64,000 nt of DNA. Origin: a virus. The position numbers were made by a program, and so were the translations under genes. Positions within the stretch are counted from its first letter, which is position 1. Each line of letters begins with the position of its first letter. The stretch is taken from the UHGV virus genome UHGV-1351279. One strand, 5' to 3'. The notes beneath the pieces were generated by a model. That model was not told where the DNA came from. It did no database searches and saw nothing but the letters and a program-made list of their open reading frames with translations. This document shows positions 4,248-58,652 of the stretch, one piece after another.

Positions 4248-4248
4248 T

Positions 4249-23170: not shown

Positions 23171-24079
23171 ATGGCAAGAAATTATAAGTACATAAGTTTA
23201 GATAGAATACTCTCTAAAGTATATAGAGATATTGGTATGGAAGAAGTTTCTGAGACAGATGTTATAGAATGGTCTGGAGAAGCTTTAGAATTTATGAGTG
23301 TAGTAAGTATCTATGAAGAAGCTATTGCTCAAGTAGAGATTAATAATCATCAAGGAGATTTACCTTATTGTCTTCAAGTTATAAGACAAGTAGCTCGTGA
23401 TAATTATTATGAGAAAAAAGATGCTTGTAAAGAAGAGAAAAAAGAAGATAAAAAAATAGAACCACAACCTAATGTTGGTTGTACAGAGTGTGGAGAAAGA
23501 ATTATTAAAGAAGTACAGCCTGACAGCTATTTTAATGCAAACCACTTTATGTTTCTAACCACTGATTATTATAAAGAGCATTATACACCTGTCAGGCTTT
23601 CTAACCACACTTTTTTTAACTCTCTTGTATGTGTAGAAGATGTAGACATCTATAAGTCTTGTATTGATGAATACACTATAGTAGAGGATAAAATTAGAAC
23701 TTCTTTTGAAGAAGGGCTGGTCCTAATATCTTATTACAGACAAAAAATAGACCCTGATACAGGTTATCCTATGATACCTGATACTATATCTCTTATTAGT
23801 GCTATTACTTACTATATTACATGGAAATACTTTCAGAGACTATGGTATATGGGTAGAGAAGGTATGAGTGATAAAATGCAACAAGCTGAAGAGAGATGGC
23901 TTAAATATTGTAAGCAAGCTACTTCAGAGTTTAAGATATTATCAGGTATAGATGAGCATCAGAACTTTATGGAAAGTAGGTTTAATAATCTTATACCTAA
24001 TAGGAGACAATATTATGGTTATTTTGGTAACCTAAGTAGATTACAAAGACTAAATTTTAGAAACAATGGATTTAATTAA
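23171..24079 (+). CDS. hypothetical protein (302 aa)
   Basis: ORF track. Confidence 0.45.
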   Translation: MARNYKYISLDRILSKVYRDIGMEEVSETDVIEWSGEALEFMSVVSIYEEAIAQVEINNHQGDLPYCLQVIRQVARDNYYEKKDACKEEKKEDKKIEPQPNVGCTECGERIIKEVQPDSYFNANHFMFLTTDYYKEHYTPVRLSNHTFFNSLVCVEDVDIYKSCIDEYTIVEDKIRTSFEEGLVLISYYRQKIDPDTGYPMIPDTISLISAITYYITWKYFQRLWYMGREGMSDKMQQAEERWLKYCKQATSEFKILSGIDEHQNFMESRFNNLIPNRRQYYGYFGNLSRLQRLNFRNNGFN

Positions 24080-27000
24080 TAATAGTATAGAACAACCATC
24101 AAAAGGTTTATATACAGATGTAGCACCTGTAAACCAGCCACCTGGTACTTACAGGTTTGCTCTTAATGCTGTGAATGAAAGTGATGAAGGAGATTTTGGT
24201 ACTTTAACTAATGAGGTTAGTAACTATAACACAAGTAATCTACCTGAAGGGTTTACTTGTATAGGTTCTGTAAATATCACAGACAATACTATAGTTTTAT
24301 TTCTTGTAAATAAAGAAACTAAAGTTAGTGAAATAGGTCTATTCAATAAAGATAGAGAGGTATATGAGACTTGGTGTAATGATAGTGGTACTACAGAAGC
24401 TAAAAATAAACTTAACTTTCAAATAAATAAACCTATACAAGCTACCTTTAGAATAAGAAGGGGTTGTGAGAGAGTTATTTATTTTGTAGATGGTTATAAT
24501 GTTCCAAGGTCTGTAAATTTAGATGAGCAATCTTTTTATTATGATAATGGTGTCTTACTTGCAAGTAAAATGGATATTAATAGAAAGATTTACTCTGTAC
24601 CTAAGATAAAAAATATAAAGATAAAAGATACTGATGGTAGTCTAAAATCAGGTAGTGTAAAAATCTGTGTAAAATATGTAGATAAAAATAAAAATGAAAC
24701 AGAGGTTGTTTCAGAAACAGAACCAATAATAATATATGAAGATAGCTTAAAAAACACTTTTGAAGAGATAGATGGGAACTTAAATCTTCCTGATAGTAAA
24801 GCTTATAGTTCCAATGGTAGTACAAAAAGTATATCTTTTAAGATAGAGGGATTAGATAAAAACTTTGAGTATTACAAATTGGTATTTATTCATTTTGAGA
24901 ACAATACAGGGTTTGCTTCTGCTGTATATGAAACACAAAATATATCTACTGAGATTGATACTTATACCTATGGAGGTAATGGTGTGTTTAAAAGTACCTT
25001 AGAAGAACTTGAACTAAAAAATAAAAACCAATACATAGGCTCTGCAAAGACCATCACACAAAAGGATAATAGGCTTATTTTAGGAAATATAAAAGGTATG
25101 ACTGAGAATTGGTCAGTACTTCAAAAATATGCTTCTAAAATAGGTGTAGATTGTGTTACAAAAAAAGTAGAGCTAAACACTCTTAGTGATACTAATAATC
25201 CAAAAAATCCACTAATAAATATTCATGGTATGGAATTTATGCCAGGAGAAGTATATTCTCTTGGTATAGTTTGGATTTATGAAGGTAATATAGAAAGTCC
25301 TGCTTTCCATATTCCTGGTACAACAAGAGAAAATACTATATGTCAAGAACTTACAGAGGAAGAAAAGAAGATATATACTATTCTTCCTATGAGTGATGAC
25401 AATGAATCAGAGAATTTAAGATATACTCAAGCTTCAAAATGTGATAATGATTTTGATTATTGGGGTGTAGATTTCTTTGGAAGAAAACTAAAAGATAAAA
25501 AGGTAAGATTTCATAGATTACCTAAGAGAATAGATTGTTTATATACAAAAGCTCAAGAGAATAGTTCTACTTCTTTTCCTTTATTGGATACTCTTACATT
25601 TAATATTTATAGTGCTGGTAAAGATAGTAAATATTGTGAAGCAAATCCAAGTGATGTACATTGTACTACTGATAAAAGAGCTAAAGAGTATTACTATAAA
25701 GTTACCTTAAATGATGGAACAGTAAAAGAATTAACTCATAGTGACGACGATGGAGTTAAGAATTTTTCTATTGAAAGAACATTAAGAACTGAATCTGATA
25801 AATTATCAGTTATATTAGATGGTATACCAAGTTCAGATGCAGAAAAATATACAAACAGCATATTTGTAACAAAGGTTGAAAAGAAGTATTTAAGAGCTTC
25901 TTATACTATAAATAATGGTATATACTCTGTAACATACAATATTGATAATTTAGAGACAGAAGATGTTATAATAGAGGTTGATGAAAAATACTATGAAAAT
26001 GAAGAATATGAAGAAGAGGAAGAATATGAAGAAGATGATGGTAGTGGAAATAAAGTAAAAAAGAGAAGAAAAGTAAAGAAAACAAGACAAGTAGAGAAGA
26101 CAAGAAAAGTAAATAAGAATTTTGGTAAAAGGATAAAGCATAATACTTATCCTAATACAACTATAATTACTACATCTATATCTCATACTCAAACAAGAGT
26201 TGATTTTTCAGAGTATTATGTCTATGATTTATATACTCTTAATGCTGGTTACAGAAATATAACCTCTGTATATAGAGGTGATTTTTGGTACTATGATGAT
26301 AACATAAGTTTTGGCATAACAACCACAATGGAGAAAAGCTCTGTAGAGACAAAAAGACTTGTAACTTCTACTATATATGGATTAAAGTTCTCTAATATAG
26401 AAATGCCTGATTTAGGTAATCTTAAATGTATAGGGTATAAAATAGTAAAGCAAGAGAGAAAAGAAGAAGATAAAACTGTTATAGATAAAGGCTATTTACT
26501 GCCTTTATTGAAAGCTGAAGGTTATCATTGCTTATCTATAATAAATGGAAATTTCAAGACTGAACAAGCTCAAAAACCAGATGGATTTTCTGAAAAATTT
26601 GTTGCTTTATTTACTCCGAGATACAAGTTCCAAAATGATACTTTAGAAAGATTTTCTTCTATAATAAATGAGGGAGGTGTTATACCTGAAGCTAATGCTG
26701 AATCAGGATTTTATATTCAGAATGTAAATGATTATAGGACAAAAGATGAAAAAAAAGAGAGTAATTATACATCACAAACAGATGGTTCTGACTTAAAAGT
26801 AGTAATTAGAAGTACTGAATTAAAATGTAGTAATAGTGTATCCAATTCTGAAATAAGAAAAGAAGATTTAGATTTTTACAATTTACAATCATGTGAATAT
26901 AATGTTACTGAGAATGGAGAAACTCTAATGAATCTTGATATGCTAAACTCTCAACTAATACTTTATAATAAAAAAGGTAACTTTGATACTTCAATGTTTG

Positions 27001-29366
27001 GTGATTTATTTGGTGATAAGAAATATCCTTATGTAGTATTAGTTAAAAATCATAAAAACTATTATCAGGACTTTTTATTAAGAGCTTACCATGATATAAC
27101 AGATTATGAAAATAATTCAAATATAACTTTTAAAGGGGATACTTTTATATCTGCTATAAGACAGACACATTTATTACATGGTAATATAGCACCAAAAGTA
27201 GCTGTTATATTAAGAGATACTTGGGATTATGTAAAAGCTGCTGTAGTTGCTATAGTAGGTGTTGCTATAGCTGTATTTTCAGTAGGTACATTAGCTATTG
27301 TAGGAGGTGCTTTAATTGCTGCTGGAGGTGTATTCTTAGGTGTAAAATCCGAAATAAAGTATCAGCATTTAAAAAATGCACTTAATGAGTTTTGGATGAA
27401 AGGTCTAAAGAGAGTTTTATATGATGTATTATTTTATACTAATAATTGTAATGATGATATAAGAAGTGGGAATGAAATAGGACCTATGGATGATATTATA
27501 AGGCATTATGGTCAGATATTTGGTGATTTAATTTGTGAATCTGAGGTAAACATGTCATTAAGAGTACAAAATGATAATGATAAAAATAACTTCCTAAGAC
27601 CTTTTTCACCTTTTATGTATGATAGAAGGGAAGTCATAACACCAACAACAAGTAAAGATAGTGATGATAATAATCACCCTGGAGAGTTTAGACACCCATG
27701 GACTATAACTGTATATACAGAAATGGTTAATAGAGGAGGAGGTTGGAGAATAAATGCTGATGGAGGAGGTGTAGAAATAAAACAAAAGGAAGAGTGGTAT
27801 TTTATAAATAAACTTACAGAAGTAGATAAAAACAGAATAAAGCCAAAGCCTGATAATAACCCTAATGCTATGTCAGGTTATAAATACAAAGATGCTTTAA
27901 GTACTAATGAATTTGTATTAAATAAGGATTATCATACAAATTACTATGTATTGAAGTACTATGCTTTACCACAGGAATATTCCTTCTGTAGTAAATGTAA
28001 TGAAGAATTTACTAACAGATTTGCTTGGAGTGATGTAAGTATGGAGGAGAGCCTTGAGGATAATTATAAAATATTCAAGCCTAATAACTATAAAGATATA
28101 TCAAGTGAGTATGGTATAATAGTAAATATATTTGTATTAGCTAATCAGCTTTATATACATGTAGAAAATGGTCTTTGGATTCAACCTACTAACTATCAAG
28201 AAAGGGTTACTAATGGAGTAGTATCTTATATAGGTACAGGAGAGTTTGGTTCTTTACCTGCACAGCTTAGATTAGATTCTAAGACAGGTACATCAGCAGG
28301 ACTTACTCAAAGAGACTCTTTTGTGCTTACTAAGTATGGATATTTCTTTGTTTGTGAGAGAGAGGGTAAAATATATACTCTTGAACCTAATGGTCAATTA
28401 AAAGCTATCTCTGATATTGGTATGTCTAAATGGTTTACAGAGTATGTAAAATCTGATATAATAAGAAGGTTTTATCTTGATGACCATGTAGAAATAACAG
28501 ATGAATATGAACTAAATAACTGCCCTTATTTACCAGCTGGTGTAGGATATAACATGATATTTGATGAGGTGAACAGTAGGATATTAGTTACTAAAAGGCA
28601 ATTCTATGAAAGAGAAGGTAAGATAGAATCTCATGATTGGACTGTAAGTTTTTCTTTAAAATTCAATGCTTGGGTGTCTTTCCATAGTTATTTCCCTGAT
28701 AAGTATTTCTTTATCTTAGATACCTTATATAGTATAAAGAATGGAAAAATATACAGACATCAAAGTATAGAAGAGGGTTATAATAAATTCTATGATAGAG
28801 TACAACCTTTTATAGTTGAGTTTGTATCTAATAATTCACATACAACTACAAAGGTATATAACCATATAAGATATATCTCTAATGCTTATAGGTATGATAC
28901 TACAACTAAGTCTTTTGTTGAGAGAAGATACCTTACATTCAATAAAGCATTAATAAGTAATTCAAGACAATGCTCTGGACTTATGAATCTAAAAGTAAAA
29001 GATATTACTGACCCTACCTTAGATTATATGCAGGAACAAGTAATAAATACAAATAATGGTACTATACTTTTAGATAGGAATGAAAGAGATTGGTTATTGA
29101 ATGACCTAAGAGACTATGTAGTGAATTATGCTAAACCTTTATTTATAAAGAGATATTATAAATCAGGATTAGAAGAACCAACCTTTGATGTACAGGATTT
29201 AAATGAAAGTGTTATAGATATAAATAAAGATTGGTATAACCTTGAAAGTTTCAGAGATAAATTTTTGGTAATAAGATTAATTTTTGATACTTTTGCAGAT
29301 GAAAATAAATATACCAAATTGGTATTAAATATTTCAAATGAGCAAAGTAATATAAGTCAGTATTAA
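24066..29366 (+). CDS. giant virion protein (1766 aa). It has a central pair of TM helices (AAVVAIVGVAIAVFSVGTLAIVGGALIAAGGVFLGV) and an acidic-then-basic charge cluster (EEYEEEEEYEEDD...KKRRKVKKTRQVEKTRKVNK).
   Basis: Uninterrupted 5.3-kb ORF. Features read by eye. Confidence 0.55.
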   Translation: MDLINNSIEQPSKGLYTDVAPVNQPPGTYRFALNAVNESDEGDFGTLTNEVSNYNTSNLPEGFTCIGSVNITDNTIVLFLVNKETKVSEIGLFNKDREVYETWCNDSGTTEAKNKLNFQINKPIQATFRIRRGCERVIYFVDGYNVPRSVNLDEQSFYYDNGVLLASKMDINRKIYSVPKIKNIKIKDTDGSLKSGSVKICVKYVDKNKNETEVVSETEPIIIYEDSLKNTFEEIDGNLNLPDSKAYSSNGSTKSISFKIEGLDKNFEYYKLVFIHFENNTGFASAVYETQNISTEIDTYTYGGNGVFKSTLEELELKNKNQYIGSAKTITQKDNRLILGNIKGMTENWSVLQKYASKIGVDCVTKKVELNTLSDTNNPKNPLINIHGMEFMPGEVYSLGIVWIYEGNIESPAFHIPGTTRENTICQELTEEEKKIYTILPMSDDNESENLRYTQASKCDNDFDYWGVDFFGRKLKDKKVRFHRLPKRIDCLYTKAQENSSTSFPLLDTLTFNIYSAGKDSKYCEANPSDVHCTTDKRAKEYYYKVTLNDGTVKELTHSDDDGVKNFSIERTLRTESDKLSVILDGIPSSDAEKYTNSIFVTKVEKKYLRASYTINNGIYSVTYNIDNLETEDVIIEVDEKYYENEEYEEEEEYEEDDGSGNKVKKRRKVKKTRQVEKTRKVNKNFGKRIKHNTYPNTTIITTSISHTQTRVDFSEYYVYDLYTLNAGYRNITSVYRGDFWYYDDNISFGITTTMEKSSVETKRLVTSTIYGLKFSNIEMPDLGNLKCIGYKIVKQERKEEDKTVIDKGYLLPLLKAEGYHCLSIINGNFKTEQAQKPDGFSEKFVALFTPRYKFQNDTLERFSSIINEGGVIPEANAESGFYIQNVNDYRTKDEKKESNYTSQTDGSDLKVVIRSTELKCSNSVSNSEIRKEDLDFYNLQSCEYNVTENGETLMNLDMLNSQLILYNKKGNFDTSMFGDLFGDKKYPYVVLVKNHKNYYQDFLLRAYHDITDYENNSNITFKGDTFISAIRQTHLLHGNIAPKVAVILRDTWDYVKAAVVAIVGVAIAVFSVGTLAIVGGALIAAGGVFLGVKSEIKYQHLKNALNEFWMKGLKRVLYDVLFYTNNCNDDIRSGNEIGPMDDIIRHYGQIFGDLICESEVNMSLRVQNDNDKNNFLRPFSPFMYDRREVITPTTSKDSDDNNHPGEFRHPWTITVYTEMVNRGGGWRINADGGGVEIKQKEEWYFINKLTEVDKNRIKPKPDNNPNAMSGYKYKDALSTNEFVLNKDYHTNYYVLKYYALPQEYSFCSKCNEEFTNRFAWSDVSMEESLEDNYKIFKPNNYKDISSEYGIIVNIFVLANQLYIHVENGLWIQPTNYQERVTNGVVSYIGTGEFGSLPAQLRLDSKTGTSAGLTQRDSFVLTKYGYFFVCEREGKIYTLEPNGQLKAISDIGMSKWFTEYVKSDIIRRFYLDDHVEITDEYELNNCPYLPAGVGYNMIFDEVNSRILVTKRQFYEREGKIESHDWTVSFSLKFNAWVSFHSYFPDKYFFILDTLYSIKNGKIYRHQSIEEGYNKFYDRVQPFIVEFVSNNSHTTTKVYNHIRYISNAYRYDTTTKSFVERRYLTFNKALISNSRQCSGLMNLKVKDITDPTLDYMQEQVINTNNGTILLDRNERDWLLNDLRDYVVNYAKPLFIKRYYKSGLEEPTFDVQDLNESVIDINKDWYNLESFRDKFLVIRLIFDTFADENKYTKLVLNISNEQSNISQY

Positions 29367-29368
29367 TT

Positions 29369-32254
29369 ATGAAAAGAAAACAAAAAAGGGCTTATGGAGG
29401 TAAAGCTTTAAGAATGATTACTCCTGCTGAAGCCATAGCAAATAATAATATAAATATAGCTAAAGCACAATATGAAGCAGAGAAAGCTGCTGCTCCTTAT
29501 GGTGCTATTAGTGATACTCTTATTGGAATAGGTTCTCAACTTGTTGGAATGAATATGCAGCAGCAACAAAATAAACAAGCTCAAGAGATAACAGGAAATA
29601 ATGTAAATCTAAATTATGAGCAACCTGAACCTAACTTTAATACAGATATACCTGCTACAGCTTTTTCTCCTAATGCATCTAAATATCAATTACCTGAATT
29701 AAGTGTAAATGATTTTGGTATGGGTAATATTGGTATGACTAATAGGAAAAATAAAGCTTTTGAATATGTGCCTAATAATCTTTCTTTTGCTACAGGAGGT
29801 GAAATAGGTAGTATATTAGGGTTTGGTTTAGATACATTAGGTCAATCATCTAATAATAAGTTTCTAAAAGGAGCAAGTAAATTTAGTAGCTTGCTACCTA
29901 TGGTAGGAGGTATTTTTGATGCATTTAGTGAATCATCAGGAGAACTTAACCCTTATGATACTCAAATGAGAAATAAGGCTAATAATGATGCTTCCTTTGC
30001 TTATAGATTTGGTACAGGAGGAAATGTCCCTATTGAAGCAGAAGGTCAAGAAGTTGTTGAAGAACCTAATGGTGAAATGTATGAATTGCAAGGTCCTTCT
30101 CATGAGCAAGGAGGTATAGATATGAATGTACCTGAAGGAAGTCAAATATACTCTAAAAGGTTACAAGGAGTTGATGGTAAAACTATGGCAGAGAGAAAAG
30201 CCTTTAGAGAGAAAAGATTAGCTAAATTAGAAGCCCTTGTAAAGAGAAATCCTAATGATAAAATATTAAGGAGGACTTTTGAAAAGACACAGAAAGACTT
30301 TGCAAAGCAAGAACAAGAAGACATGGCATATATGAATTATATGCACCAATCTCAGCAAATGCAACAAGGTCAAGAAGAAATGTTAGACCCTATGCAAGGT
30401 GCTTTAGAGCAAGAAGATATGTTTGCTATGGGAGGTCCAGCTAAGAAAGTAAGACCTATAAAGTATAAAAGTAAATTATATAATCCAAGAGGAGAATACA
30501 GAGTAACTGATGATATAGAGAACCCTGGATTTGCTATAAATCCTCCAAAAATGCCAAAACTTGTAAATGGTATGCCAGAGAGTTTTAGTCCTGAGCAACC
30601 TATAAATACTGATTATGAAGCTTATTATGATGAAAATGGAGACGTTAGATATAGATACTTAAAAAATACAGTACCTTCTATAGCAACACCAGGTATAGTA
30701 GAAAGTAAAGAACAAAAAACATCTTCTACTAATACTAATAAATCTAGTCAAAGTAATAATAATGATGAGGAATCTTTTTGGAATAAAGCCTATGATTCTT
30801 TACCTACTTTAGGGGATGCTATAAATCTTTATGGTAAATATAAAACTGCCTATGACCCTGCTGACATGACATTAGCTAATAGGGCAGGAGATACACCAAA
30901 TATTAATCCTTATGAGAATTATGGTGTTAGAGGTCTAAACAAGATGGAAGATGTAAAAAACAACCTAAAGAATAATTTAGACCAAGCTGTACTCAATAAC
31001 CAAAAGAATACTAATCTCTATAAGGCTAATGCTGCAAGTAATGCTCGTAGTATAAATACTATGAGAGCTATGAATTTAGCTTCTGAAGCTCAACAATTAG
31101 CTGCTGATAATGCTGCTTATATGCAATATGCTCAACAAGTAGCTGGAATAGATTCTCAAATAGCTCAAATGATGAATCAGCAAGACCAAATGCAAATGAT
31201 GGGTAATAGCCAAAGAGACCTTGCAGATAGACAAGATAGAGATAACTTTAATAAACAGTTACAGCAAGATATTGCAACTCGTAATAGAGGTATTCAAGAG
31301 ATTGGTAAGACACTTAATGATTGGAAAGAAAGAGACTTTAATTTTAATGTAGTAAATCAGACCTCTAAAGACTTTAAGTTGAATAAGAATGGTACTATTA
31401 GTGCTAAAGGTAATGAAAGTACATGGACACCTGAGAAGAGATATTGGAATGGTAAGCAACAATCTGAATATGATAATTACTTGAAGAACTATAAGACTAA
31501 GGGTTACTTTATTGAAGGTGATACTATGTATGATAAAGATGGTAAAGAAGTAGACCCTAATAATCATTATGCAGTAGTTCCTGGAGGTAAAGAATTTGAC
31601 TTATCAGGTAAGAAGAGAGAAGAGAAAGAACTTGAAAAGAAAAAGATAGAAGTTTATAATAGAATTTCAGGTACGGACTTTAATGATTACTTTGATAGTG
31701 TAGATGATATGCTAAAGAGTAAGAGAGCTTATGATGATAATGAATGGTCTGAAGAAGGTAAGAAGTATGCTAAGTATCAACAAGATTTCTTGAATAATGA
31801 AGAGAGATACAGAAACTTCAGAAACTTTACAGGTAAGAATGGTGAGACATTCAAGAGTGCTAAGAGCATGAGAGACTATGAGTACTTAAATGGTAAAGCT
31901 ACAGAAGTAGAAGAAAAGAAGAAAGATATTAGTAAACTAATATCAGGTGCTGGAGGTAAAGAAACAAGAATAGGTGACTTATATGAATTTAAAGTTACAT
32001 TACCTCCTACTAAAAAAGGTGGTAAACCAGTACAAGATACTGTAGAAGTGAATAAACAACTTGTTGAAAAATATCAAGAAGATTTTGATGCTTTAAACCC
32101 TGATAGTGATAAGAGTATCTTTGATGTAAGTGATAATAAAGTTATAGAGTTCTGGAATAAATTTATAACAGGAATTTATAAGGATAAAGATAAAGAAGCT
32201 CTCAACAAAGTTAAAATATTTTTTGGAACAACTGGAACAAGTAGAAGAAAGTAA
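29369..32254 (+). CDS. large Q/N-rich virion protein (961 aa) with GG-containing motifs (FATGGEI, FGTGGNV, MGGPAKK)
   Basis: ORF track. Low-complexity composition. Confidence 0.5.
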   Translation: MKRKQKRAYGGKALRMITPAEAIANNNINIAKAQYEAEKAAAPYGAISDTLIGIGSQLVGMNMQQQQNKQAQEITGNNVNLNYEQPEPNFNTDIPATAFSPNASKYQLPELSVNDFGMGNIGMTNRKNKAFEYVPNNLSFATGGEIGSILGFGLDTLGQSSNNKFLKGASKFSSLLPMVGGIFDAFSESSGELNPYDTQMRNKANNDASFAYRFGTGGNVPIEAEGQEVVEEPNGEMYELQGPSHEQGGIDMNVPEGSQIYSKRLQGVDGKTMAERKAFREKRLAKLEALVKRNPNDKILRRTFEKTQKDFAKQEQEDMAYMNYMHQSQQMQQGQEEMLDPMQGALEQEDMFAMGGPAKKVRPIKYKSKLYNPRGEYRVTDDIENPGFAINPPKMPKLVNGMPESFSPEQPINTDYEAYYDENGDVRYRYLKNTVPSIATPGIVESKEQKTSSTNTNKSSQSNNNDEESFWNKAYDSLPTLGDAINLYGKYKTAYDPADMTLANRAGDTPNINPYENYGVRGLNKMEDVKNNLKNNLDQAVLNNQKNTNLYKANAASNARSINTMRAMNLASEAQQLAADNAAYMQYAQQVAGIDSQIAQMMNQQDQMQMMGNSQRDLADRQDRDNFNKQLQQDIATRNRGIQEIGKTLNDWKERDFNFNVVNQTSKDFKLNKNGTISAKGNESTWTPEKRYWNGKQQSEYDNYLKNYKTKGYFIEGDTMYDKDGKEVDPNNHYAVVPGGKEFDLSGKKREEKELEKKKIEVYNRISGTDFNDYFDSVDDMLKSKRAYDDNEWSEEGKKYAKYQQDFLNNEERYRNFRNFTGKNGETFKSAKSMRDYEYLNGKATEVEEKKKDISKLISGAGGKETRIGDLYEFKVTLPPTKKGGKPVQDTVEVNKQLVEKYQEDFDALNPDSDKSIFDVSDNKVIEFWNKFITGIYKDKDKEALNKVKIFFGTTGTSRRK

Positions 32255-32256
32255 TT

Positions 32257-34668: not shown

Positions 34669-34669
34669 T

Positions 34670-51100: not shown

Positions 51101-53592
51101 ACAAGTTAAGAGAGTTGAGAGGTGATGAAGAAACAATAACTCCTACACAACCTACACCTCCTCCAGCACCAAAAGAACGTTATGGAGAAGAATTTCAAGT
51201 AGACCAATTTGTATTTTCTTATAATCCTGAGACAGGTAAGTACTATCAGCATTTTAAATCTAAAAAAGGAGAAGTAAAAGAACTTACTAATGAAAAGCAA
51301 CAAAACAAAACTTTTTTAAAGTACATAGAAAAACACCCTGAGCATGCTGAAATAGTAACTTATGAAAATACAGGTAATAAATATGTTTATGATAAGAAAA
51401 GAGATAAAGTAATATCTTTATCTACAGCAGACACCATAGTTCAACCTGATATTGTTGATAAAGTAAAAAACCATGAAAAATACGCAAGGGAAGAAAAGAT
51501 AGAAGGTTTAAAGAAATACATAAAACAATATTTAAAAGATTTCAAGGATATGTCTTTTGCAAGACTTTATCAATTATTGATTAATCAAGGTACTATAACT
51601 CATGAAGATGCACATGATTTTTCTGAAGCTTTTAATCAAGCTCAACAAGAAATAAATGAAGAAAAAAATACAAGAGTCTATAAATTAAAAAGCCAACTCC
51701 CCAGTGATGTATTAGAGTATTTAAAAAATACAATAAGTGAGTACTATGATAAAAATGATAGCAAAGATGTAAACACTATCTACAGAGATTTTATGAAATC
51801 CCGTGAAGGTAAGAATGGAGGTTTTATATTTGATGTACATGGTTTGGGTAGTTTTAATATACATAATGATATATTTACAGAGCTTTTTAAAGAAATAAAA
51901 AAAGAAAAAGAGCTTGAAAAAGAAGCTAAAAAACCCCCTCAATATGAACACTCATTTTCTTACAAAGGTATAACAATACCTACTAAATTTCAATTATCAG
52001 AAGAGCAAGAACAGGCTCTTATAACTCTTATAGAAAATATTACAAGTGGAGATACAGAACCTATAACTTTAAGTGGCTATGCTGGTACTGGCAAAACTTC
52101 TGTGATAGGATATTTGGAAGATTATTTAAAAAGGAAAAGAGGTTATAAATTTCTTTATGGCGCACCTACACATGCTGCTACACTATATTTAGGTTATAAC
52201 ACTAAGAAAATGCCTTTTACAATTGCTTCTTCTGTTGTAAAAAGAATAGATGATTTTGGTAATGTAACTTACACAACATCTTCAAAAGTTGACCAAGCAT
52301 TATCAGACTACGACCAGAATATCTTTGTAGTAGATGAAGTTTCTCTAATGGATTCAACCACTATGGATAATTTCCTTTCTGTAATGGATAGAAAAGGTGT
52401 AAAAGTTATATTCATGGGGGATAAAATGCAATTACCTGAAGTAGCATCTAAAGGAAAAATAAACCCTGAAACAAAAAATTCTATAAAAGATGTTTCTAAG
52501 GCTTTTACTGATTTTAAATTAATACAATTATCTCAAGTACAAAGAACAAAAGATAACTCAATTTTGAGGGTTCTAACAGAGATTAGGAATAATCCTGATG
52601 GTGTATTACCTGTTGTAGATAATACAGAGACTCTACAGTTTTTTAATAAAGATGATAACACTAAAGGTTTTTACAAAGGGTTTAGAACAGCTTATGAAGC
52701 AGACCCTGAAGAAGCTATTTATATTACTTATACCAATGAAGATGTAAAGAACTTCAATAAATCTTTTAGAAAAGCTTTTTATGGTGAAGATGTAGATGGC
52801 TTAGTTGAAGGTGAATCTGTAATAGGATACTCTGGTTACAACAATAAAAAGATTAAGTCAAATGACTTAGCAAACAGTATAAAATACACTGTAGATGATA
52901 TTAGTTATGATGGTTCTGAAGTAAAAATAACATTAAAATCTAATGCTATACAAAAATTAGCTGATTTGCATTCACCAAATAGAGAGAATGATAAAACTGT
53001 ACAAACTACTTATTTACAGATGTCCAGAACAGACTCTTTAGATATGAAAAATCTTACAGATAAAGATTTTTTAAAGAATAATAGTAAACTATCTGAAATA
53101 TTTAGAGATGTCTATGATTTGAAGAAGATGGCTTTAGGAACAAACAGATGGAAAGATTTTAGTGAGACACTTGCTAAGATTACAGGGGGACTTGCTAAAT
53201 TAGAGATTGGAGATGATTATTTCTACAATCCATATACAAATATGATGGAAAAAGAAAGCTCTGTAAATTGGTCTAATCCTCAAATGGCTAATCTAAAAAA
53301 GAATTATAAAGAGCTTTTTATGAGTAAGAGTATTGACTATGGTTATGGTATAACTATACATAAAGCACAAGGAGCTACTTATAAGAATGTATTCTTTAAT
53401 TCTACATCAACGGAATTTGCTAAAACAGAAATCCATGAAAATGGAATGCAAATAAGTACAGAAGGTAACTCTCTTAACTATGTAGCTATGTCAAGAGCAA
53501 GTGAGAAACTTTTTGTTCTTCACTCTAATAATATAAAAAGATTAAACAATGATGACTCTATAGAGTTGTCAAAAAATTGCAGTGTATTCTAA
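48196..53592 (+). CDS. ~1799-aa protein with N-terminal DprA/LOG-like (SLOG) Rossmann motifs and a C-terminal Dda/RecD-like SF1B helicase domain
   Basis: HSGGAIGADT (about nt 49009-49038) and TGGTGYAV (about nt 49353-49380). A second Rossmann-like FVFGDNSIRQGTGGQAQ segment (about nt 49700-49745). Helicase Walker A LSGYAGTGKTS, Walker B VVDEVSLMD and motif V/VI ITIHKAQGATY (about nt 51930-53592). The ORF-track start 48190 is TTG. ATG 48196 overlaps the upstream stop as TAATG. Confidence 0.55.
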   Translation: MSTCKVEFKGFNIDSSSLDNYLNQFTIDGKQKIDGAKNTISYLLSNAKDNKLGVLKLALNSNKAYIKDLANMMLNTNRKFYAEVEINNNLKGFSKYNANDNKIYINVDAISQRFSESAEEYLYERIVHDFIQGFANRELKKAYEDANRDSPYMKNIINLFKEYSKSVDLKEYNVFKDSVNKEPLLDPRSERSLIREGYAEETYRAITNPAEFLSYGLSNSEFRNTLRKQNLWQKFVSLLKDLLGISQDNNDLEYLYKNLDSYLKQDDPYTLHSGGAIGADTVWGQIGKQFGISEENQRHYKTADMPNGNTQITEQDYREGRKEAAKAANRMFGYDKTEVNMGLLIRNWSQVKYSEAVYAVGRLVPAGENAFPDNKKEDTRIAKNPTVTGGTGYAVNMAILNNKPVYVYNQYDNPTYPKGWYKYDSNINDYVPTETPTLTRHFAGIGTRNINEDGEKAIQDTYEKTFNKKQQTGSQSSTDSNIKVEQQNRYSVQDVRNNPDKIFVFGDNSIRQGTGGQAQIRNEPNAVGIMTKKFPRNTPDAFLYDSEYAENIKRINEDIENLKQKVKGKTVVFPTDGIGTNLADIAHTAPRTMEYLINRLREEFGLKDSDPFIKSMLNKLNEARNGFGQKMLIDGEIYSYNVDKLKAYKHTFVGSGINAKQNATEVTDPNLIKKISDKYFETDNNNNNESNTSDKVDDILNEFEFLKTNDPEQSKEVEILEPFGVFPKNTGFLIVHTPSAKGNTVVRIKTKDGKYYQYEIVKVGAGESVSVFKFDKEGDRYVKKSLELNEKNSFIKSFVIKFVGISNEQANREDIKSIFTKALAFLTNKSKNKEGYRELLNNEFVKSDLLHIHNVNLQDTIAQINSLKADDKVEVDRINYLLDYLTNDLNNNDKIWYFGRYAENDLFGLLVNEEKLTKLSSEDALLKYEELKQLLSRKFKELVYDYNGDVKKWLFSLLDEKELDGDLLNKLRELRGDEETITPTQPTPPPAPKERYGEEFQVDQFVFSYNPETGKYYQHFKSKKGEVKELTNEKQQNKTFLKYIEKHPEHAEIVTYENTGNKYVYDKKRDKVISLSTADTIVQPDIVDKVKNHEKYAREEKIEGLKKYIKQYLKDFKDMSFARLYQLLINQGTITHEDAHDFSEAFNQAQQEINEEKNTRVYKLKSQLPSDVLEYLKNTISEYYDKNDSKDVNTIYRDFMKSREGKNGGFIFDVHGLGSFNIHNDIFTELFKEIKKEKELEKEAKKPPQYEHSFSYKGITIPTKFQLSEEQEQALITLIENITSGDTEPITLSGYAGTGKTSVIGYLEDYLKRKRGYKFLYGAPTHAATLYLGYNTKKMPFTIASSVVKRIDDFGNVTYTTSSKVDQALSDYDQNIFVVDEVSLMDSTTMDNFLSVMDRKGVKVIFMGDKMQLPEVASKGKINPETKNSIKDVSKAFTDFKLIQLSQVQRTKDNSILRVLTEIRNNPDGVLPVVDNTETLQFFNKDDNTKGFYKGFRTAYEADPEEAIYITYTNEDVKNFNKSFRKAFYGEDVDGLVEGESVIGYSGYNNKKIKSNDLANSIKYTVDDISYDGSEVKITLKSNAIQKLADLHSPNRENDKTVQTTYLQMSRTDSLDMKNLTDKDFLKNNSKLSEIFRDVYDLKKMALGTNRWKDFSETLAKITGGLAKLEIGDDYFYNPYTNMMEKESSVNWSNPQMANLKKNYKELFMSKSIDYGYGITIHKAQGATYKNVFFNSTSTEFAKTEIHENGMQISTEGNSLNYVAMSRASEKLFVLHSNNIKRLNNDDSIELSKNCSVF

Positions 53593-53603
53593 AATAAAAT
53601 AAT

Positions 53604-56600
53604 ATGTCTTGTAAAAATACAGTCTTAAACAGTAATAGTAGAAATGTAGTGATGAAAGGTCTTTATGAAAAAGACCTTATCACTGCCTATAAGAATGTTG
53701 GTAATACAACAATAATACAAGTATCTAACATTAAGGATTTCAATAAAAGGAATCAACTTTTAATAGATAAAATACAGGAATTACAACCTCAATTTTTATC
53801 TTCTTTTGGAAGTATGTATAACACCACTCCAACAGAATTATTCTTTGATAAAGTAAATGGTAGTCAAGAACAATTTGCTATAAAGAATTATATGTTTGAA
53901 AGGCTATCTAACTTTAAAATGGTAGATTTTAATAAGCTACAAGAAACTTTAGATAGCTTAGGTAAAATAGCTGTACAAGTATCAAATGGTAATATAGAAA
54001 TTAGAAACCATAAAATACACGGTTTTACTAAAGAAGAAGTAGATGCTATAGTAAAAAAGTATAATACACTTTCTTCTGAAAAACAACAATACATAAAAGA
54101 TGAAATTAGAAATAGTAGAAATATTGTAGATAAAGTAGCTTCAAAACTTTATGATGCTTATGAAGATAGACTTAACCTAATTACTGATATTGATTCAAAT
54201 TCAATGAGAATAGGTAATAAAAACTCTAATAATATTATTAAAGTAAAATCTAAGGAAGTTGAATCTAATAGAGAGCTTCAAGAAATAAAAGATGAAGTAG
54301 CTAATAATAAAGCTAAGGAACTTACAAGAAAAAACACTGAGGATAGCAATAAAAGGAGTAATGATTATAATACTGATGGTGATATATTGCCTTCAAATGA
54401 TAATTGGGACTCAAACTCTGACCCTAATATTACACCTCCTGTAACAGATAATTATACAGAATATACAAATTACTTAGATGCACTACTAAAAAGTGTACAG
54501 AAAAAGAAAGGTGAGTTAATAAAAGAACTCAAAAATCCAAAAAACAAGAATAAAACTAAGACTATTGATGACCTAAATAAGCTAATAACTGAAGAGGGTA
54601 AATTACAAGAGTACTATAATAATGCTATATCTGGTGAAAATGAGAAAAATGTAGAGACATTATTTAATGAATTAGATGATTTGTCTCATAAACTTGATGT
54701 AATAGATAGTGGTAGCATAAAGAATCTTGGAGATAGGGTTGATTTCCTTTTTGGATTTATTACAGGTACAAAATATGGAAGCAATGAAAATGTTGATTAT
54801 GCAATAAGTGAGAATCCTGAACTTAGGTCTAAGGTACTTTCTCTAATGCATAAATATAATAGTAAGCTCAATGAAATATCTAATAAAATCATTGAAGAAG
54901 ATGTTACTTATCAACATAATGTACTTAATAATATTGCATTTAAAAGAGCTGATGGTAAAATAGACAAAGATAAGGTAAATGATTTATTTAAAGTAAAAGA
55001 TGATATAAACTTTTTTGAGAAAGCCCTTTTAGGGGTATCTCAAGCAAGTACTAAAGAATCTATTACTCCTCAAATATTAAAGTCATACCTTGAAAAAAAT
55101 ATGTCTCATAGGACATCTGAAGCTATTGCTTATAAGGATAGATTATTAGCTGCTATTGAGAAATTAGAAGCAAAAGGTATTACTGATTTTAGCTTTATAT
55201 TTGAGAAATTTTTATCAGGAGCAAGAACAGGTAATATCATTAGTAAATATACTTCTGAGTATAGGAGAAAGCTTTATAAATACTTTAATATGGAAGTTGA
55301 GGGTAATGACTATGCTTCTTATTATAGTAAGAAAATACAATGGCTAAAGGCTAATGCTGATGTTATAGACTTTAGAAAAATAAAGGCTTTTAAAGACCTT
55401 TATGGTAAGAACTATCCTAATGAATTTATCTTCTCTGACCAGGAAATGGAAGAATATGAAAATAATCTTAGAAAACAACTTGGTAAAGTGTATGATAAAG
55501 AGATAGACAAAGTAAATAGTTGGATAGAAAATTATGAGCTTACTAAGCAAAATTATGAATCTAAATATGAAGCAGAGAGAAATAACCCTTTTGTATTTCT
55601 AAGGTCTTATTTTGGAGATTCTCCAACTACAGCAGCTGCATTTAATGGTACAGGAGGTATATCAAGTATATTTCCTAACCTTAATGATATTGTATTTGTA
55701 CCAAGAAAAACCTTTACTGAGGGCTATGACTTTAATGGAGAAGAAATAACCTCTGATACAGGCTATTATAATAAAGACTTTGATAGAATTGAACAGTCTG
55801 ATGAAATGTTTGAGTATTGGTCTGTATTAGAAGATATATATTCTCAATACATAAATCCTACCTATGACATATCAGGAATGAGCTTTGCTAAGATACAAAA
55901 GGAGTTTCTCGAAAAAGTAAGTGATGCAAAAGGTGCTTCTAAAGCAGGTACTCTAATATCTAAAGGTATACAAGCTTATAGAGAGTATTTCTATGAAGTA
56001 GGTGTAGGTAATAAGAAAGATAAAGGTATTGTAGAGAACTATTCTGATAAGACAAAACAAGAAATAAAGGCTCTATCATCAGCTCTAAAAGCTAAATCTG
56101 TTGATGAGCTTAAATCTATGGCAAAAGATTTAGGTCTTACTATACCTAATAACATAACACCAGAGCAATTAGTTCATGAGATTGCAAGTGAAATGACTTT
56201 AAGGAATTATTCTTCTGATATTAATAAGATAACAGGGGCTTTAATTGATATGGTAGCTTTACAAAAAGCCAGAGAAGATACTTTACCTATAGCTAATATC
56301 TTACTTGAGAAACATAAGAAAACTGTAGGAGAAAGTGAAAGGGAGAGAAAAAATAGTATTGAGAAATTAGAACACTATATCAATAAAGTAATTAAGAATG
56401 AGCATGAGCATGCAAGAGGTACAGAACAACTAATAGGTAAAGAGATTAAAACACCTGGTTGGATAGAGATGTTACTTGATAAATTAGGTGTTATAGGTTG
56501 GCTTAAAAATAAAGTAGAAAAGAATAGGTTCTTTTACCTTTATAGTGATTCAGAAAGACAATTATTAAAAGAACTCCAGAGTGCAAGAGAAAGAGGTCAT

Positions 56601-58616
56601 AACTCTAATATTAGTGATAGTTTCTATCAAGATGGTATGAGATATGAACTTATAGTGGATGAGCATGGGGGTACATATTTTGCAAGCTATAAAGATAAGC
56701 ACACAGGAGAAGATAAAATAATTGATATAACTCCTGAGCAATATGAAGAAGCTTATCAAAAGAATATAGAAAGTAAGATACAAAGTTTGGGTCTTGACTT
56801 AAATAGTGCTGGTATTATTCAAGGAATACTAAAAACTATCATTTTTAAAGGATTAGGACTTAACCCTATTGGAGGTATCAGAAACAGGATGGAAGGTAAA
56901 AATACCAACCTTATAATGGATATGACAGGGTATTACTGGACTAAAGGTAATATTAGACATGCTCATAATTTCTTAGCCTTTGCTAATATGTTGCATATTT
57001 TACCTGATAGGATTTCTCCTGAACACATGGGTAAATACAAACAACTAAAAATCTTTAGGTCTTTAGTAGAGAAGATGAGGATTGTTCAAGATAGAAAAAA
57101 CCCTTTAGAGAGAAATATTGAGCAGTCTAAGTTCTCTATGGAGAAATATACTAATGTTTTTTCTTGGGCTGTAGATAACCCTGAGTTTAAGAACCAGGGT
57201 TCTGTGGTTCTTGCTATACTAATGGATACTAAGATAGAGAACAATAAAGGGGAATTAGTACCTATATTTGATGGTTCTAAATTTACTGTATTTGAAGAAA
57301 CTAAAGATGGTTCCTTAAGATTAAAAGAAGAGTTTAGGTCCGAAGAGAATATAAGGAATTGGGAAAATATGGAGGTAGGATTTAATGAAGAGGATAATAA
57401 CCAATTCTTTCTAACAAGAAATAAAATGAAGACAGCCATATCAAGAACACAAGGTAACTATGATGATATGGATACTATTTGGGCTTCAAGAACTATATGG
57501 GGTCAAGTTCTAATGATGTTTAAAAAATGGATGCCAGAACACTTTATGCAGAGATTTGCATCAGGACAGAATTTTGACTTATTTACAGGAAAGAAACAAA
57601 TGATGGGTAGATACAGAGCTATGTGGAATAATAATCCTGCATTGGCTGTAACAGGACTTTCCTCTATATTAGTAGGATTAGGTTTAGGAGCTGGAGCTTT
57701 AACTGTAGGAGGTATTACAGGAGTTGTAGCTTTTAAGTTTATACATAATATGATGGGAGGAAATAAAGGTATCTTAGAAGAAGCTAATAATATAGGAGGA
57801 TTAGTAGCTTTTACTAAGTCAATACTTATTAGTACTCTTAATTACCCTTTAGAGCTTATCAATCTAAAGACAGGTATTCCAACAAAATATGATGGATATT
57901 CTAAATTAAATCTTACTGAAGAGGAAATAGGTACTTTAAGGTCTTTAGCTAAAGAAATAGCTGTAAAACTAACCTGGTTAAGTATAATGTTACTTGCTAA
58001 ATCTCTTACTTGGGATGATGATGATGATGATGACTCAGATAAAAGGAAGTTACATAATTTCTTAGATAATGAGCTTAATACAACTATTAATACATTACAA
58101 TCCTGGTCAGACCCAGGTGCTTTATATGATGATGCATCAAGAAGCTCTTTTCTTTTATATTGTGATAATGTAACAAAACTATTAAAGAGTATTATGTTAC
58201 TCAATGGAGGGGATGCTTCAAAATATGCTTTAAAGGTATCTCCTGTACCATCTTTCTTTACACACATGGTATCTAAAGATGGTGATTTACTAATGCCTTG
58301 GCAAAATGATTATGAATATGATAAAGGTAAAACTTATTGGGATGGATTTATAAAAGAAATAAAAGGTAGAGGACATGAAAAATGGTCTAAGAAAGAATAC
58401 AATAAAATAAGAAAAGAGAAAAAAGCTGAAATGTTAGAACAAGGTATGAGTGAAAAAGAGATTAAAGAAGCTCTTGGTACTAAACCAAAAGGAATGTCCT
58501 ATGTAGATGCTTTAGATTATATGGAAAATGGAGGATTACCTCCACAAGAACCTAAGAAAAAAGGTAGACCTAAAGGTAGTAAAAACAAGAAAAAAGAGGA
58601 TTCAGCTCAAAAGTAA
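53604..58616 (+). CDS. giant virion protein (1670 aa) with a C-proximal cluster of 3 TM helices, a poly-Asp run and an AT-hook-like basic tail (KKKGRPKGSKNKKK)
   Basis: ORF track. TM segment ALAVTGLSSILVGLGLGAGALTVGGITGVVAF. DDDDDDDSD is encoded by (GAT)7 at 58014-58034. GRPKGS at about nt 58555-58600. Confidence 0.55.
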   Translation: MSCKNTVLNSNSRNVVMKGLYEKDLITAYKNVGNTTIIQVSNIKDFNKRNQLLIDKIQELQPQFLSSFGSMYNTTPTELFFDKVNGSQEQFAIKNYMFERLSNFKMVDFNKLQETLDSLGKIAVQVSNGNIEIRNHKIHGFTKEEVDAIVKKYNTLSSEKQQYIKDEIRNSRNIVDKVASKLYDAYEDRLNLITDIDSNSMRIGNKNSNNIIKVKSKEVESNRELQEIKDEVANNKAKELTRKNTEDSNKRSNDYNTDGDILPSNDNWDSNSDPNITPPVTDNYTEYTNYLDALLKSVQKKKGELIKELKNPKNKNKTKTIDDLNKLITEEGKLQEYYNNAISGENEKNVETLFNELDDLSHKLDVIDSGSIKNLGDRVDFLFGFITGTKYGSNENVDYAISENPELRSKVLSLMHKYNSKLNEISNKIIEEDVTYQHNVLNNIAFKRADGKIDKDKVNDLFKVKDDINFFEKALLGVSQASTKESITPQILKSYLEKNMSHRTSEAIAYKDRLLAAIEKLEAKGITDFSFIFEKFLSGARTGNIISKYTSEYRRKLYKYFNMEVEGNDYASYYSKKIQWLKANADVIDFRKIKAFKDLYGKNYPNEFIFSDQEMEEYENNLRKQLGKVYDKEIDKVNSWIENYELTKQNYESKYEAERNNPFVFLRSYFGDSPTTAAAFNGTGGISSIFPNLNDIVFVPRKTFTEGYDFNGEEITSDTGYYNKDFDRIEQSDEMFEYWSVLEDIYSQYINPTYDISGMSFAKIQKEFLEKVSDAKGASKAGTLISKGIQAYREYFYEVGVGNKKDKGIVENYSDKTKQEIKALSSALKAKSVDELKSMAKDLGLTIPNNITPEQLVHEIASEMTLRNYSSDINKITGALIDMVALQKAREDTLPIANILLEKHKKTVGESERERKNSIEKLEHYINKVIKNEHEHARGTEQLIGKEIKTPGWIEMLLDKLGVIGWLKNKVEKNRFFYLYSDSERQLLKELQSARERGHNSNISDSFYQDGMRYELIVDEHGGTYFASYKDKHTGEDKIIDITPEQYEEAYQKNIESKIQSLGLDLNSAGIIQGILKTIIFKGLGLNPIGGIRNRMEGKNTNLIMDMTGYYWTKGNIRHAHNFLAFANMLHILPDRISPEHMGKYKQLKIFRSLVEKMRIVQDRKNPLERNIEQSKFSMEKYTNVFSWAVDNPEFKNQGSVVLAILMDTKIENNKGELVPIFDGSKFTVFEETKDGSLRLKEEFRSEENIRNWENMEVGFNEEDNNQFFLTRNKMKTAISRTQGNYDDMDTIWASRTIWGQVLMMFKKWMPEHFMQRFASGQNFDLFTGKKQMMGRYRAMWNNNPALAVTGLSSILVGLGLGAGALTVGGITGVVAFKFIHNMMGGNKGILEEANNIGGLVAFTKSILISTLNYPLELINLKTGIPTKYDGYSKLNLTEEEIGTLRSLAKEIAVKLTWLSIMLLAKSLTWDDDDDDDSDKRKLHNFLDNELNTTINTLQSWSDPGALYDDASRSSFLLYCDNVTKLLKSIMLLNGGDASKYALKVSPVPSFFTHMVSKDGDLLMPWQNDYEYDKGKTYWDGFIKEIKGRGHEKWSKKEYNKIRKEKKAEMLEQGMSEKEIKEALGTKPKGMSYVDALDYMENGGLPPQEPKKKGRPKGSKNKKKEDSAQK
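58014..58034 (+). repeat. (GAT)7 trinucleotide microsatellite encoding poly-Asp
   Basis: gatgatgatgatgatgatgac read directly from the sequence. Confidence 0.7.
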
Positions 58617-58624
58617 AAAAAATA

Positions 58625-58652
58625 AAGAAGATGGATAAAAAACCATCTTCTT
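58625..58652. terminator. bidirectional rho-independent terminator AGAAGATGG-ataaaaaa-CCATCTTCT between the convergent blocks
   Basis: 9-bp stem with T-runs on both strands. Confidence 0.6.

Follow-up and report, generated by a model that had tools for sequence, protein, structure and literature searches.

Among crAss-like phages, the arrangement of tail-tip and cargo genes has been described for crAss001 in a published atlas (Bayfield et al. 2023, PMC10172136). There, Ring 1 (gp43) and the muzzle (gp44), a hexameric gate of ~1 MDa at the tail tip, are followed by two mid-size proteins (gp45, C1; gp46, C2) and by giant proteins related to RNA polymerase (RNAP; gp47, gp49 and gp50). Mass spectrometry (MS) of crAss001 virions detects gp45, gp46, gp47, gp49 and gp50, which are treated as ejected cargo; gp45 and gp46 are proposed to form a transmembrane (TM) channel, the other three being RNAP-associated, and the cargo must unfold to traverse a tail with disulfide-stabilised parts (PMC10172136). 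In Cellulophaga phage phi14:2, the RNAP has been shown to transcribe the early genes following delivery; in vitro it transcribes single-stranded (ss) but not double-stranded DNA, and its early transcripts share no detectable common upstream motif (Drobysheva et al., 10.1101/2020.03.07.982082). The catalytic motif of crAss-like RNAPs carries I or V at position 4, and some phages fuse the RNAP and neighbouring virion proteins into one polyprotein (10.1101/2020.03.07.982082). Other podoviruses, namely N4 (Schitoviridae; virion RNAP gp50 with gp51 and gp52) and T7 (gp14, gp15 and gp16), also eject channel-forming proteins, and in N4 a giant 'beads-on-a-string' RNAP, of a class known as ejected, starts transcription (PMC13434306). 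However, the N4 polymerase has a T7-like single-subunit fold whereas the crassvirus enzyme is QDE-1-like with two double-psi beta-barrels (DPBBs), and the channel proteins have no sequence homology. Here we describe a block of six giant genes (G1 to G6, in genomic order) in the UHGV virus genome UHGV-1351279, a stretch of 64,000 nucleotides that is called the window throughout.

Our analysis suggests, with a probability of roughly 75%, that this block is the late operon for the tail tip, cargo and virion RNA polymerase of a crAss-like phage belonging to a lineage related to Flavobacterium psychrophilum phage FpV4. It is a divergent new member of the known crassvirus muzzle-cargo-polymerase operon and introduces no new principle. 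As read from the sequence, its variant features are a split-off protein with SLOG, DUF7831 and superfamily 1B (SF1B) helicase modules, the AT-hook of G6, the TM-like hairpin of the muzzle and the degraded zincin motif of G4. The window has 30% G+C, uses the standard genetic code and encodes a crassvirus major capsid protein (11355-12824; Pfam Crass_capsid, E 2.5e-127), 51% identical to that of FpV4, as well as a P22-like portal (Pfam); the large terminase and the portal are also matched by PHROGs. FpV4 and its relatives are the closest cultured phages. In its DNA sequence the phage is new: 24 kb of the block, searched by megablast against 50,697 phage records, had no match.

The six open reading frames (ORFs), all on the plus strand, are real at the coordinates and lengths given in Table 1, since such long open frames cannot arise by chance at 30% G+C. 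A preliminary description of the window, made from its letters alone, had singled out these six consecutive co-directional giant genes, and the ORF list bears this out. It had rightly put them at more than half of the window (34,551 nt, 54%), although its spacing of 1-12 nt needs correction to gaps of 2, 2, 1, -7 and 11 nt between successive genes; the RNAP-like megaprotein, the SLOG-plus-helicase protein and the AT-hook-like basic tail that it had noticed among them were all recovered in our searches, as detailed below. With the Ring 2 and Ring 1 genes upstream, and terminators, a change of GC skew and a strand switch downstream, the six genes constitute the distal end of a late virion operon. 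Ring 1 directly precedes G1, as gp43 precedes gp44 in crAss001. At the other end, GC skew flips sign in the region 58620-58752, and the genes past G6, encoding a dNMP kinase, an Ant-like protein and a Dda-like helicase, lie on the minus strand. The two terminator-like hairpins are long, perfect and back to back within the 115-nt convergent gap between G6 and the dNMP kinase gene. The same order (muzzle, two to three mid-size proteins, RNAP-related giants, a protein of ~1400-1600 aa, strand switch) is found in FpV4, phi14:2, crAss001 and Suoliviridae. FpV4 gp29-gp33 share the five-gene layout, with homology for G1, G2, G3 (weakly), G4 and G6.

The first gene of the block is structural. A match to the Pfam family crAss_MUZ (PF25731; 167 bits against a cutoff of 27, E 8.4e-49) identifies G1 as the tail muzzle protein, the gatekeeper of the tail tip, and not as cargo. 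G1 also matches phrog_15100 (E 7e-293) and is homologous to FpV4 gp29 and crAss001 gp44; the C-terminal muzzle domain PF25729 scores under its cutoff (20.7 bits against 27, E 5.9e-4). Because the muzzle family match is so far above threshold and the gene lies directly after Ring 1, we do not regard G1 as an ejected pore protein. G1 carries a Gly-rich hydrophobic hairpin, for which FpV4 gp29 has an equivalent hydrophobic pair at residues 949-992 (Kyte-Doolittle 19-mer means of 2.75 and 2.33), while a hydropathy scan of crAss001 gp44 gave no counterpart. Thus a two-helix hairpin is found in the muzzle of this phage and of FpV4, whereas crAss001 has a TM helix on the cargo protein gp45 instead; a membrane-active element may have moved between muzzle and cargo proteins.

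Homology to characterised enzymes identifies a crAss-type virion RNAP within G4. Residues 2657-3530 align with residues 955-1666 of the crystallised phi14:2 RNAP (gp66) at 23% identity over 908 columns (E 2e-26), a match that spans the two-DPBB, bridge-helix and trigger-loop region of that enzyme; a database-wide tblastn gave E 1e-16. The catalytic motif DYDID, for which phi14:2 has DFDID, obeys the I/V rule for position 4 and is common to G4 and FpV4. G4 is further related to crAss001 gp50 (E 2e-10, the motif region) and to the annotated RNAP catalytic subunits of crAssphage and crAss002; it matches FpV4 gp32 over residues 1513-4235 and phrog_16227, a 'virion structural protein' family (E 2.6e-176). 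A phmmer search of PDB chains gave no direct match to G4 at E 0.01, and nothing useful for G1, G4 or G6. In G4, a Gly/Ala-rich N-terminus with amphipathic stretches is followed by a K/E-rich segment, then by the RNAP core and finally by a degenerate zincin-like region. G4 is thus a fusion of the kind introduced above. In phi14:2, by comparison, the RNAP is a separate protein of 2180 aa with virion components as neighbours, and in crAss001 the RNAP-associated genes are split, with gp49 and gp50 on the opposite strand.

The zincin-like region of G4 aligns with residues 241-356 of phi14:2 gp076, where the motif is an intact HEIMH (E 1e-10), and with FpV4 gp32, which has an intact HEVIH. In G4 the motif reads EEIIH, as it does identically in four close relatives (L004-L007), and we therefore rejected an active zincin protease in G4. 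With the first zinc ligand lost, the proposed RNAP-activating or peptidoglycan-digesting protease is probably inactive in this clade.

Sequence similarity places G6, the final gene of the operon, in the family of crAss001 gp49 and FpV4 gp33. FpV4 gp33 is matched with E 2e-25 in a local comparison and with 1e-12 when the whole phage database is searched. A match to crAss001 gp49, labelled 'RNA-polymerase subunit', consists of two collinear high-scoring segment pairs, and a cr85_1 protein of that label is matched with a database-wide E of 3e-4. A hydrophobic segment ~300 residues from the C-terminus is conserved across the gp49 family. In G6 it is a Gly-rich hairpin, with equivalents in FpV4 gp33 (1249-1280), crAss001 gp49 (1212-1230), phi14:2 gp076 (1291-1309) and the more distant lineage L008; weaker hydrophobic segments are found at residues 1068-1086 and 1447-1465. 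The C-terminal tail, KKKGRPKGSKNKKK, reads as a canonical and clade-specific AT-hook: the 9-mer GRPKGSKNK within it exactly matches the AT-hook-2 peptide of HMGA, which serves as a binder specific for A-T DNA. The motif is kept in L004-L007 and in the L008 homologue (45% identical overall), is absent from the FpV4, crAss001 and phi14:2 homologues of G6, and has no other copy in the six block proteins.

G2 and G3 are putative cargo, as judged from their position and composition. They lie between the muzzle gene and the RNAP-related giants, like C1 and C2 of crAss001. G2 matches phrog_15413 (E 1.6e-64) and FpV4 gp30 (E 1e-33), and the N-terminus of G3 weakly matches FpV4 gp31 (E 4e-10). Searches of Pfam, PHROG and NCBIfam gave no family match for G3; G2 had no match in Pfam, and NCBIfam held no family for G2, G3 or G6. 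Neither G2 nor G3 has a segment reaching a Kyte-Doolittle 19-mer mean of 1.2.

The composition in question is a near absence of cysteine. G2 to G6 together contain 5 Cys in 9740 aa (0.05%), compared to 105 in 9287 aa (1.13%) for the other 22 proteins of the window (Fisher p 8e-27): none in G2 and G3, one in the 4508 aa of G4, and two each in G5 (1798 aa) and G6, unlike G1, which contains 21. A similar separation is seen in crAss001, with 0-0.24% Cys in the cargo against 0.73% in the muzzle, and in FpV4, with 0-0.17% in gp30-33 against 1.07% in the muzzle; phi14:2 gp076-081 have 0-0.48%. It extends beyond the crassviruses, as the virion RNAP of the N4-like Klebsiella phage Pylas has no Cys in 3819 residues and the ejected proteins of T7 (gp14, gp15 and gp16, with 1, 0 and 0 Cys, plus gp6.7 and gp7.3) have 0.08% against 1.15% for the others (p 1e-8). 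Cys content is not mentioned in the crAss001 atlas (PMC10172136) or in the main ejection-protein papers. Strong Cys avoidance thus sets cargo apart from tail and capsid proteins in this phage, crAss001, phi14:2, FpV4 and T7, and could serve as a cheap, sequence-only predictor of ejected proteins in uncultured phages.

The remaining gene, G5, is what most distinguishes the block from its relatives. The G4/G5 junction reads TGC-TAA-TGA, in which the ATG at 48196 overlaps the G4 stop codon TAA by one base (TAATG). Starting there, G5 has 1798 aa and is identical to database entry P0001; this ATG is likely the true start, and the -7 gap an artefact of the ORF finder's TTG. Behind a conserved N-terminal domain of 265 aa, G5 carries a SLOG module, with the Rossmannoid SLOG fold and the N-terminal glycine-rich loop, a DUF7831 module and a C-terminal SF1B helicase. 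The helicase matches Pfam AAA_30 (74.3 bits, cutoff 27, E 1.3e-20), Pfam PIF1 (48.7 bits, cutoff 25.9, E 9e-13) and Dda in the PDB (3upu, E 4.5e-8), with Walker A, Walker B and motifs III, V and VI intact (GYAGTGKTS, VVDEVS, GDKMQLPEV, HKAQGATY, YVAMSRA). An isolated HEDAH at residue 1138 was rejected as a zincin, having no supporting homology. Because the G5 helicase shares 44% identity along its entire length with the standalone Dda-like helicase of the same window (E 2e-155), but is only ~24% identical to other crassvirus Dda-like helicases, we regard it as a paralogue of the phage's own helicase that was recruited into the virion operon.

The preliminary description was right to point to this protein, which is unusual. 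FpV4, crAss001 and phi14:2 have no G5 counterpart: in FpV4 the RNAP giant gp32 is followed directly by gp33, the 25-72 kb region of crAss001 holds no SLOG-helicase protein, and the phi14:2 block lacks both helicase and SLOG protein; no phage record covers more than 29% of G5. However, a G5-like gene is found at the same position in four lineages, and the order giant, G5-like protein, ~1600-aa protein and strand switch recurs in the more distant lineages L008, L009 and L016. Moreover, the same types of module, in the same N-to-C order as in G4 followed by G5, form the C-terminal parts of Suoliviridae RNAP giants. In cr113_1 (gp38, 4328 aa) the C-terminus is a SLOG domain 44% identical to that of G5 (E 8e-37). 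In cr50_1 (gp059, 4774 aa, an uninterrupted ORF) it consists of a DUF7831-like stretch and an SF1 helicase, which matches G5 at 27% identity (E 6e-23) and Pfam AAA_30 (E 5e-21). Pylas, too, carries the G5 SLOG module, within its virion RNAP of 3819 aa (36% identity, E 2e-29). The difference is that the Suoliviridae modules belong to a single polypeptide, whereas G5 is a separate, translationally coupled gene with its own N-terminal domain; cr113_1, in addition, uses TAG as a sense codon. Its gp38 gene (L012, 4890-17876) contains 73 TAG codons in frame and terminates with TAA, consistent with a reassigned TAG, and the called genes of L009 and L016 cannot be translated with the standard code, which suggests recoding there too.

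G5 is also strikingly mosaic. Among phages that are ~90% identical in G4 and G6, its cassettes vary, and the protein may be as short as 1026 or as long as 1800 aa. A constant frame consists of the first 265 aa, the helicase and, at 996-1110, a small domain, while SLOG, DUF7831, the middle and linker cassettes and inteins are variable. The wider family comprises 161 matches, modular proteins of 1000-3100 aa with NADAR, AlkB, ART-PolyVal, RNase H and T7-type RNAP among the extra domains; the context of one entry, P0120, proved to be unrelated. A megaphage-sized record of an uncultured phage, of 634,780 bp (LR745206.1, 8001-11531; L011) carries a SLOG and DUF7831 pair 44% identical to G5 272-606, so that the cassette travels as a pair across very different phages. 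In some close relatives (L005, 9971-14674; P0003, P0007, P0014, P0015 and P0021) inteins with Hint and LAGLIDADG domains interrupt the helicase domain, and free-standing LAGLIDADG homing endonuclease genes lie between the RNAP giant and the G5-like gene in L009 (8843-9550) and L016 (9271-9972). The G4/G5 junction is a hotspot for selfish elements.

What might such a protein do? Viral SLOG, Macro and NADAR domains have a predicted role in countering immunity based on NAD and ADP-ribose (PMC9503650), and the SLOG and macro-like cassettes of G5 are in keeping with it. The SLOG and DUF7831 modules most likely bind or hydrolyse NAD- or ADP-ribose-derived nucleotides of host immunity, and the helicase most likely unwinds or translocates entering DNA. 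G5 resembles the polyvalent proteins, whose archetype, P1 DarB, is a virion-packaged methylase plus superfamily 2 (SF2) helicase (Iyer et al. 2017, PMC5512222), in being large, multi-domain, encoded among virion genes, made of shuffled catalytic modules with a helicase and predicted to be delivered with the DNA. It differs in that its helicase is SF1B (Dda/RecD-type) rather than SNF2-type SF2 and in lacking a methylase, a MuF domain and a zincin MPTase. SF2 helicases are listed in the 2017 catalogue, which mentions neither SLOG nor SF1 (PMC5512222). We infer that G5 is a polyvalent addition specific to this lineage and acts together with the polymerase.

The readings of this locus differ on whether G5 travels in the virion. 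On the sequence evidence, packaging and ejection of G5 in this phage is slightly favoured, since its gene is coupled to G4 through TAATG, its modules are fused to virion RNAPs elsewhere and its composition is Cys-poor. The main rival holds that G5 is not packaged but expressed late, as an accessory enzyme that serves anti-defence, recombination or replication in the cytoplasm and merely occupies a permissive insertion hotspot. Its absence from FpV4, crAss001 and phi14:2, its mosaic content among near-identical phages and the inteins and homing endonucleases sharing the spot are all in keeping with this explanation. So is the descent of its helicase from a replication helicase that is likewise Cys-free, and SLOG, Macro and NADAR proteins of viruses typically stand alone (PMC9503650). 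However, G5 overlaps G4, no internal terminator was found, and its modules are covalently part of Suoliviridae RNAP giants and of an N4-like virion RNAP, a known ejected class. The low Cys content (2 in 1798 aa; family median 0.15%) also speaks against a cytoplasmic enzyme, and a counter-defence enzyme would be most useful when present ahead of phage gene expression. We therefore consider the unpackaged alternative unlikely, although it is the most serious of the competing explanations.

If G5 is indeed ejected, the preference of the phi14:2 RNAP for ssDNA makes a co-delivered 5'-3' helicase plausible as a means of supplying template or pulling in DNA. A fuller version of this idea has G5 co-ejected as the helicase partner that opens or reels in the incoming duplex and so gives the RNAP its ssDNA template, with swappable SLOG/macro-like cassettes that pre-empt NAD/ADP-ribose immunity and with low Cys as a general signature of ejection, from which ejected proteomes could be predicted by genome sequence; taken as a whole this is speculative and, in our estimate, rather doubtful.

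For the other cargo candidates the case is stronger, and by analogy with the relatives G2, G3, G4 and G6 are very probably packaged and ejected in this phage. The preliminary description had the whole block injected; this is supported for these four proteins, which are homologous or positionally equivalent to virion proteins found by MS, but not for the muzzle G1. In phi14:2, the whole run of genes that begins with the muzzle and ends at the strand switch, gp076-081 included, is annotated as structural from tandem MS.

Several observations weigh against our reading of the operon. The link between G6 and crAss001 gp49 is weak, with a local E of ~1e-5 and a database-wide 3e-4 to the related 'RNA-polymerase subunit'. 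BLAST and jackhmmer gave no similarity of G2 or G3 to crAss001 gp45/gp46 or phi14:2 gp079-081, nor did a local jackhmmer search over the reference cargo proteins connect crAss001 gp45, gp46 and gp47 or phi14:2 gp078-081 with G2, G3 or the N-terminal part of G4, and G2 has no TM helix whereas crAss001 gp45 has one at residues 130-154. The first ~1500 residues of G4 match nothing: a relaxed BLAST of residues 1-480 gave nothing significant, and a database search with residues 1-1500 returned no matches, close relatives included, where compositional bias probably swamped the word index. As for G5, it is missing from the three crassviruses with virion proteomes, packaging of the fused Suoliviridae proteins might be preceded by cleavage, and the standalone helicase paralogue has no Cys in 523 residues, so that Cys depletion does not discriminate for the G5 helicase.

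The preliminary description went further and took all six proteins, G1 included, for an injected pre-assembled machine of pore, polymerase, helicase and DNA-binding functions, new for crAss-like phages. The ingredients are there, in the TM-like hairpins of G1 and G6, the RNAP of G4, the helicase of G5 and the AT-hook of G6. However, the description had held that clear homology to tail structural proteins would speak against ejection, and for G1, which it saw as an envelope-spanning ejection protein, such homology is what we found: G1 is a bona fide muzzle, Cys-rich like other tail parts, and its crAss001 homologue is the hexameric tail-tip gate (PMC10172136). The clusters of TM helices that it described in the 1766-aa and 1670-aa proteins amount, on the Kyte-Doolittle scale, to one Gly-rich hydrophobic hairpin in each protein, with weaker segments in the latter. 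The notion that this goes beyond a polymerase-only cargo of crAss-like phages is outdated, since channel-forming, non-polymerase cargo is already described for crAss001 (PMC10172136), and neither pre-assembly nor a role as 'replication starter' finds support. We therefore judge the all-cargo machine highly improbable. That G2 to G6 are tail, baseplate or tape-measure-like structural proteins that are never ejected is the least probable explanation of all: PHROG and RefSeq do label the homologues of G1 and G4 'virion structural protein', and the long coiled-coil-like K/E-rich stretch and Gly-rich hydrophobic segments of G4 recall tape-measure proteins, but G4 carries a catalytic RNAP core homologous to an enzyme that transcribes early genes after delivery, the G5 helicase motifs are intact, the Ring and Muzzle genes already account for the tail barrel and tip, and crassviruses, being podovirus-like, have no long tail whose length would need measuring (PMC10172136).

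Returning to the muzzle, cargo and polymerase operon, we infer the biochemical roles of G2 to G6 by analogy with crAss001, phi14:2, T7 and N4. G1 would form a hexameric gate at the tail tip and stay on the virion. Adsorption would open this gate, and the nearly Cys-free G2 to G6 would leave capsid and tail before the DNA, in a partly unfolded state. The Gly-rich hydrophobic segments, such as the G6 hairpin and the G4 N-terminus, may contribute to a trans-envelope conduit. In the cytoplasm, the G4 polymerase would refold and transcribe the early genes on the opposite strand, while the C-terminal AT-hook may keep G6 on the AT-rich genome. G5 would work with the polymerase, its helicase unwinding or translocating the incoming DNA.

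Helicase and nucleotide-processing modules have thus been attached repeatedly to virion RNAPs, as a coupled gene here, as C-terminal fusions in Suoliviridae and, for one of them, as an internal insertion in an N4-like phage. This suggests a testable answer to the question of how crAss-type polymerases that prefer ssDNA start on an incoming duplex genome. At the population level, the G5 locus is a cassette hotspot, which fits an arms race fought with proteins delivered along with the DNA, and the canonical AT-hook on the last cargo protein offers a concrete handle on how proteins might be tethered to the genome during ejection. Should G5 prove to be in virions and to aid the polymerase, the importance of the block would rise substantially.

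Table 1. Features of the six-gene block and its flanks (positions in the 64,000-nt window; residue numbers refer to the protein named)
Feature	Position	Strand	Remarks
Tail ring protein 2	21955-22656	+	Pfam CrAss_Ring_2, E 1.2e-40, 139.8 bits against cutoff 27; upstream of block
Tail ring protein 1	23171-24079	+	Pfam CrAss_Ring_1, E 3e-49; overlaps G1 start
G1	24066-29366	+	1766 aa; predicted muzzle
Gly-rich hydrophobic hairpin, G1 1054-1097	27225-27356	+	Kyte-Doolittle 19-mer mean 2.64
G2	29369-32254	+	961 aa; putative cargo, positional equivalent of crAss001 C1 (gp45)
G3	32257-34668	+	803 aa; putative cargo, positional equivalent of crAss001 C2 (gp46)
G4	34670-48196	+	4508 aa; predicted giant virion RNA polymerase polyprotein
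RNAP core, G4 2657-3530	42638-45259	+	homology to phi14:2 RNAP
Catalytic motif DYDID, G4 3165-3169	44162-44176	+	kept in five relatives
Zincin-like region, G4 4188-4323	47231-47638	+	HExxH degraded to EEIIH
G5	48196-53592 from ATG (48190 from TTG)	+	1798 aa (1800 aa from TTG); SLOG, DUF7831, SF1B helicase
SLOG domain, G5 268-475	48991-49614	+	motif HSGGAIGAD
DUF7831 module, G5 485-607	49642-50010	+	
SF1B (Dda/RecD/Pif1-type) helicase domain, G5 1256-1800	51955-53592	+	motifs all intact
G6	53604-58616	+	1670 aa; predicted gp49-family cargo protein
Gly-rich hydrophobic hairpin, G6 ~1345-1380	57636-57743	+	Kyte-Doolittle 19-mer mean 1.74
AT-hook tail, G6 1651-1664	58554-58595	+	G-R-P core with basic flanks
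Two terminator-like hairpins	58620-58657 and 58725-58752		15 and 12 paired bases, then T-runs; operon end
Standalone Dda-like helicase	61675-63246	-	523 aa; phrog_325, E 1e-57; Pfam AAA_30; replication module

Elsewhere in the window, a sigma-70 promoter scan gave 106 sites against 103.7 expected, Bacteroidota promoters being outside the model; the window has no tRNAs, and the tandem repeats of the block are all trivial. A PD-(D/E)XK exonuclease gene (19408-20112; phrog_298, E 1e-26) lies amid the tail and structural genes, like FpV4 gp24, an odd location for a nuclease. The neighbouring 528-aa protein (20109-21695) shares its residues 210-349 with many giant tail, minor-head and virion proteins of nine PHROGs (best E 9e-25), where they form an internal module that may be a shared receptor-binding or enzymatic module. 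On the minus strand past the operon, an Ant/Bro-N-type anti-repressor-like gene (59773-60597; phrog_130, E 9e-81) opens the early or replication module, in a type of phage that is usually regarded as virulent.

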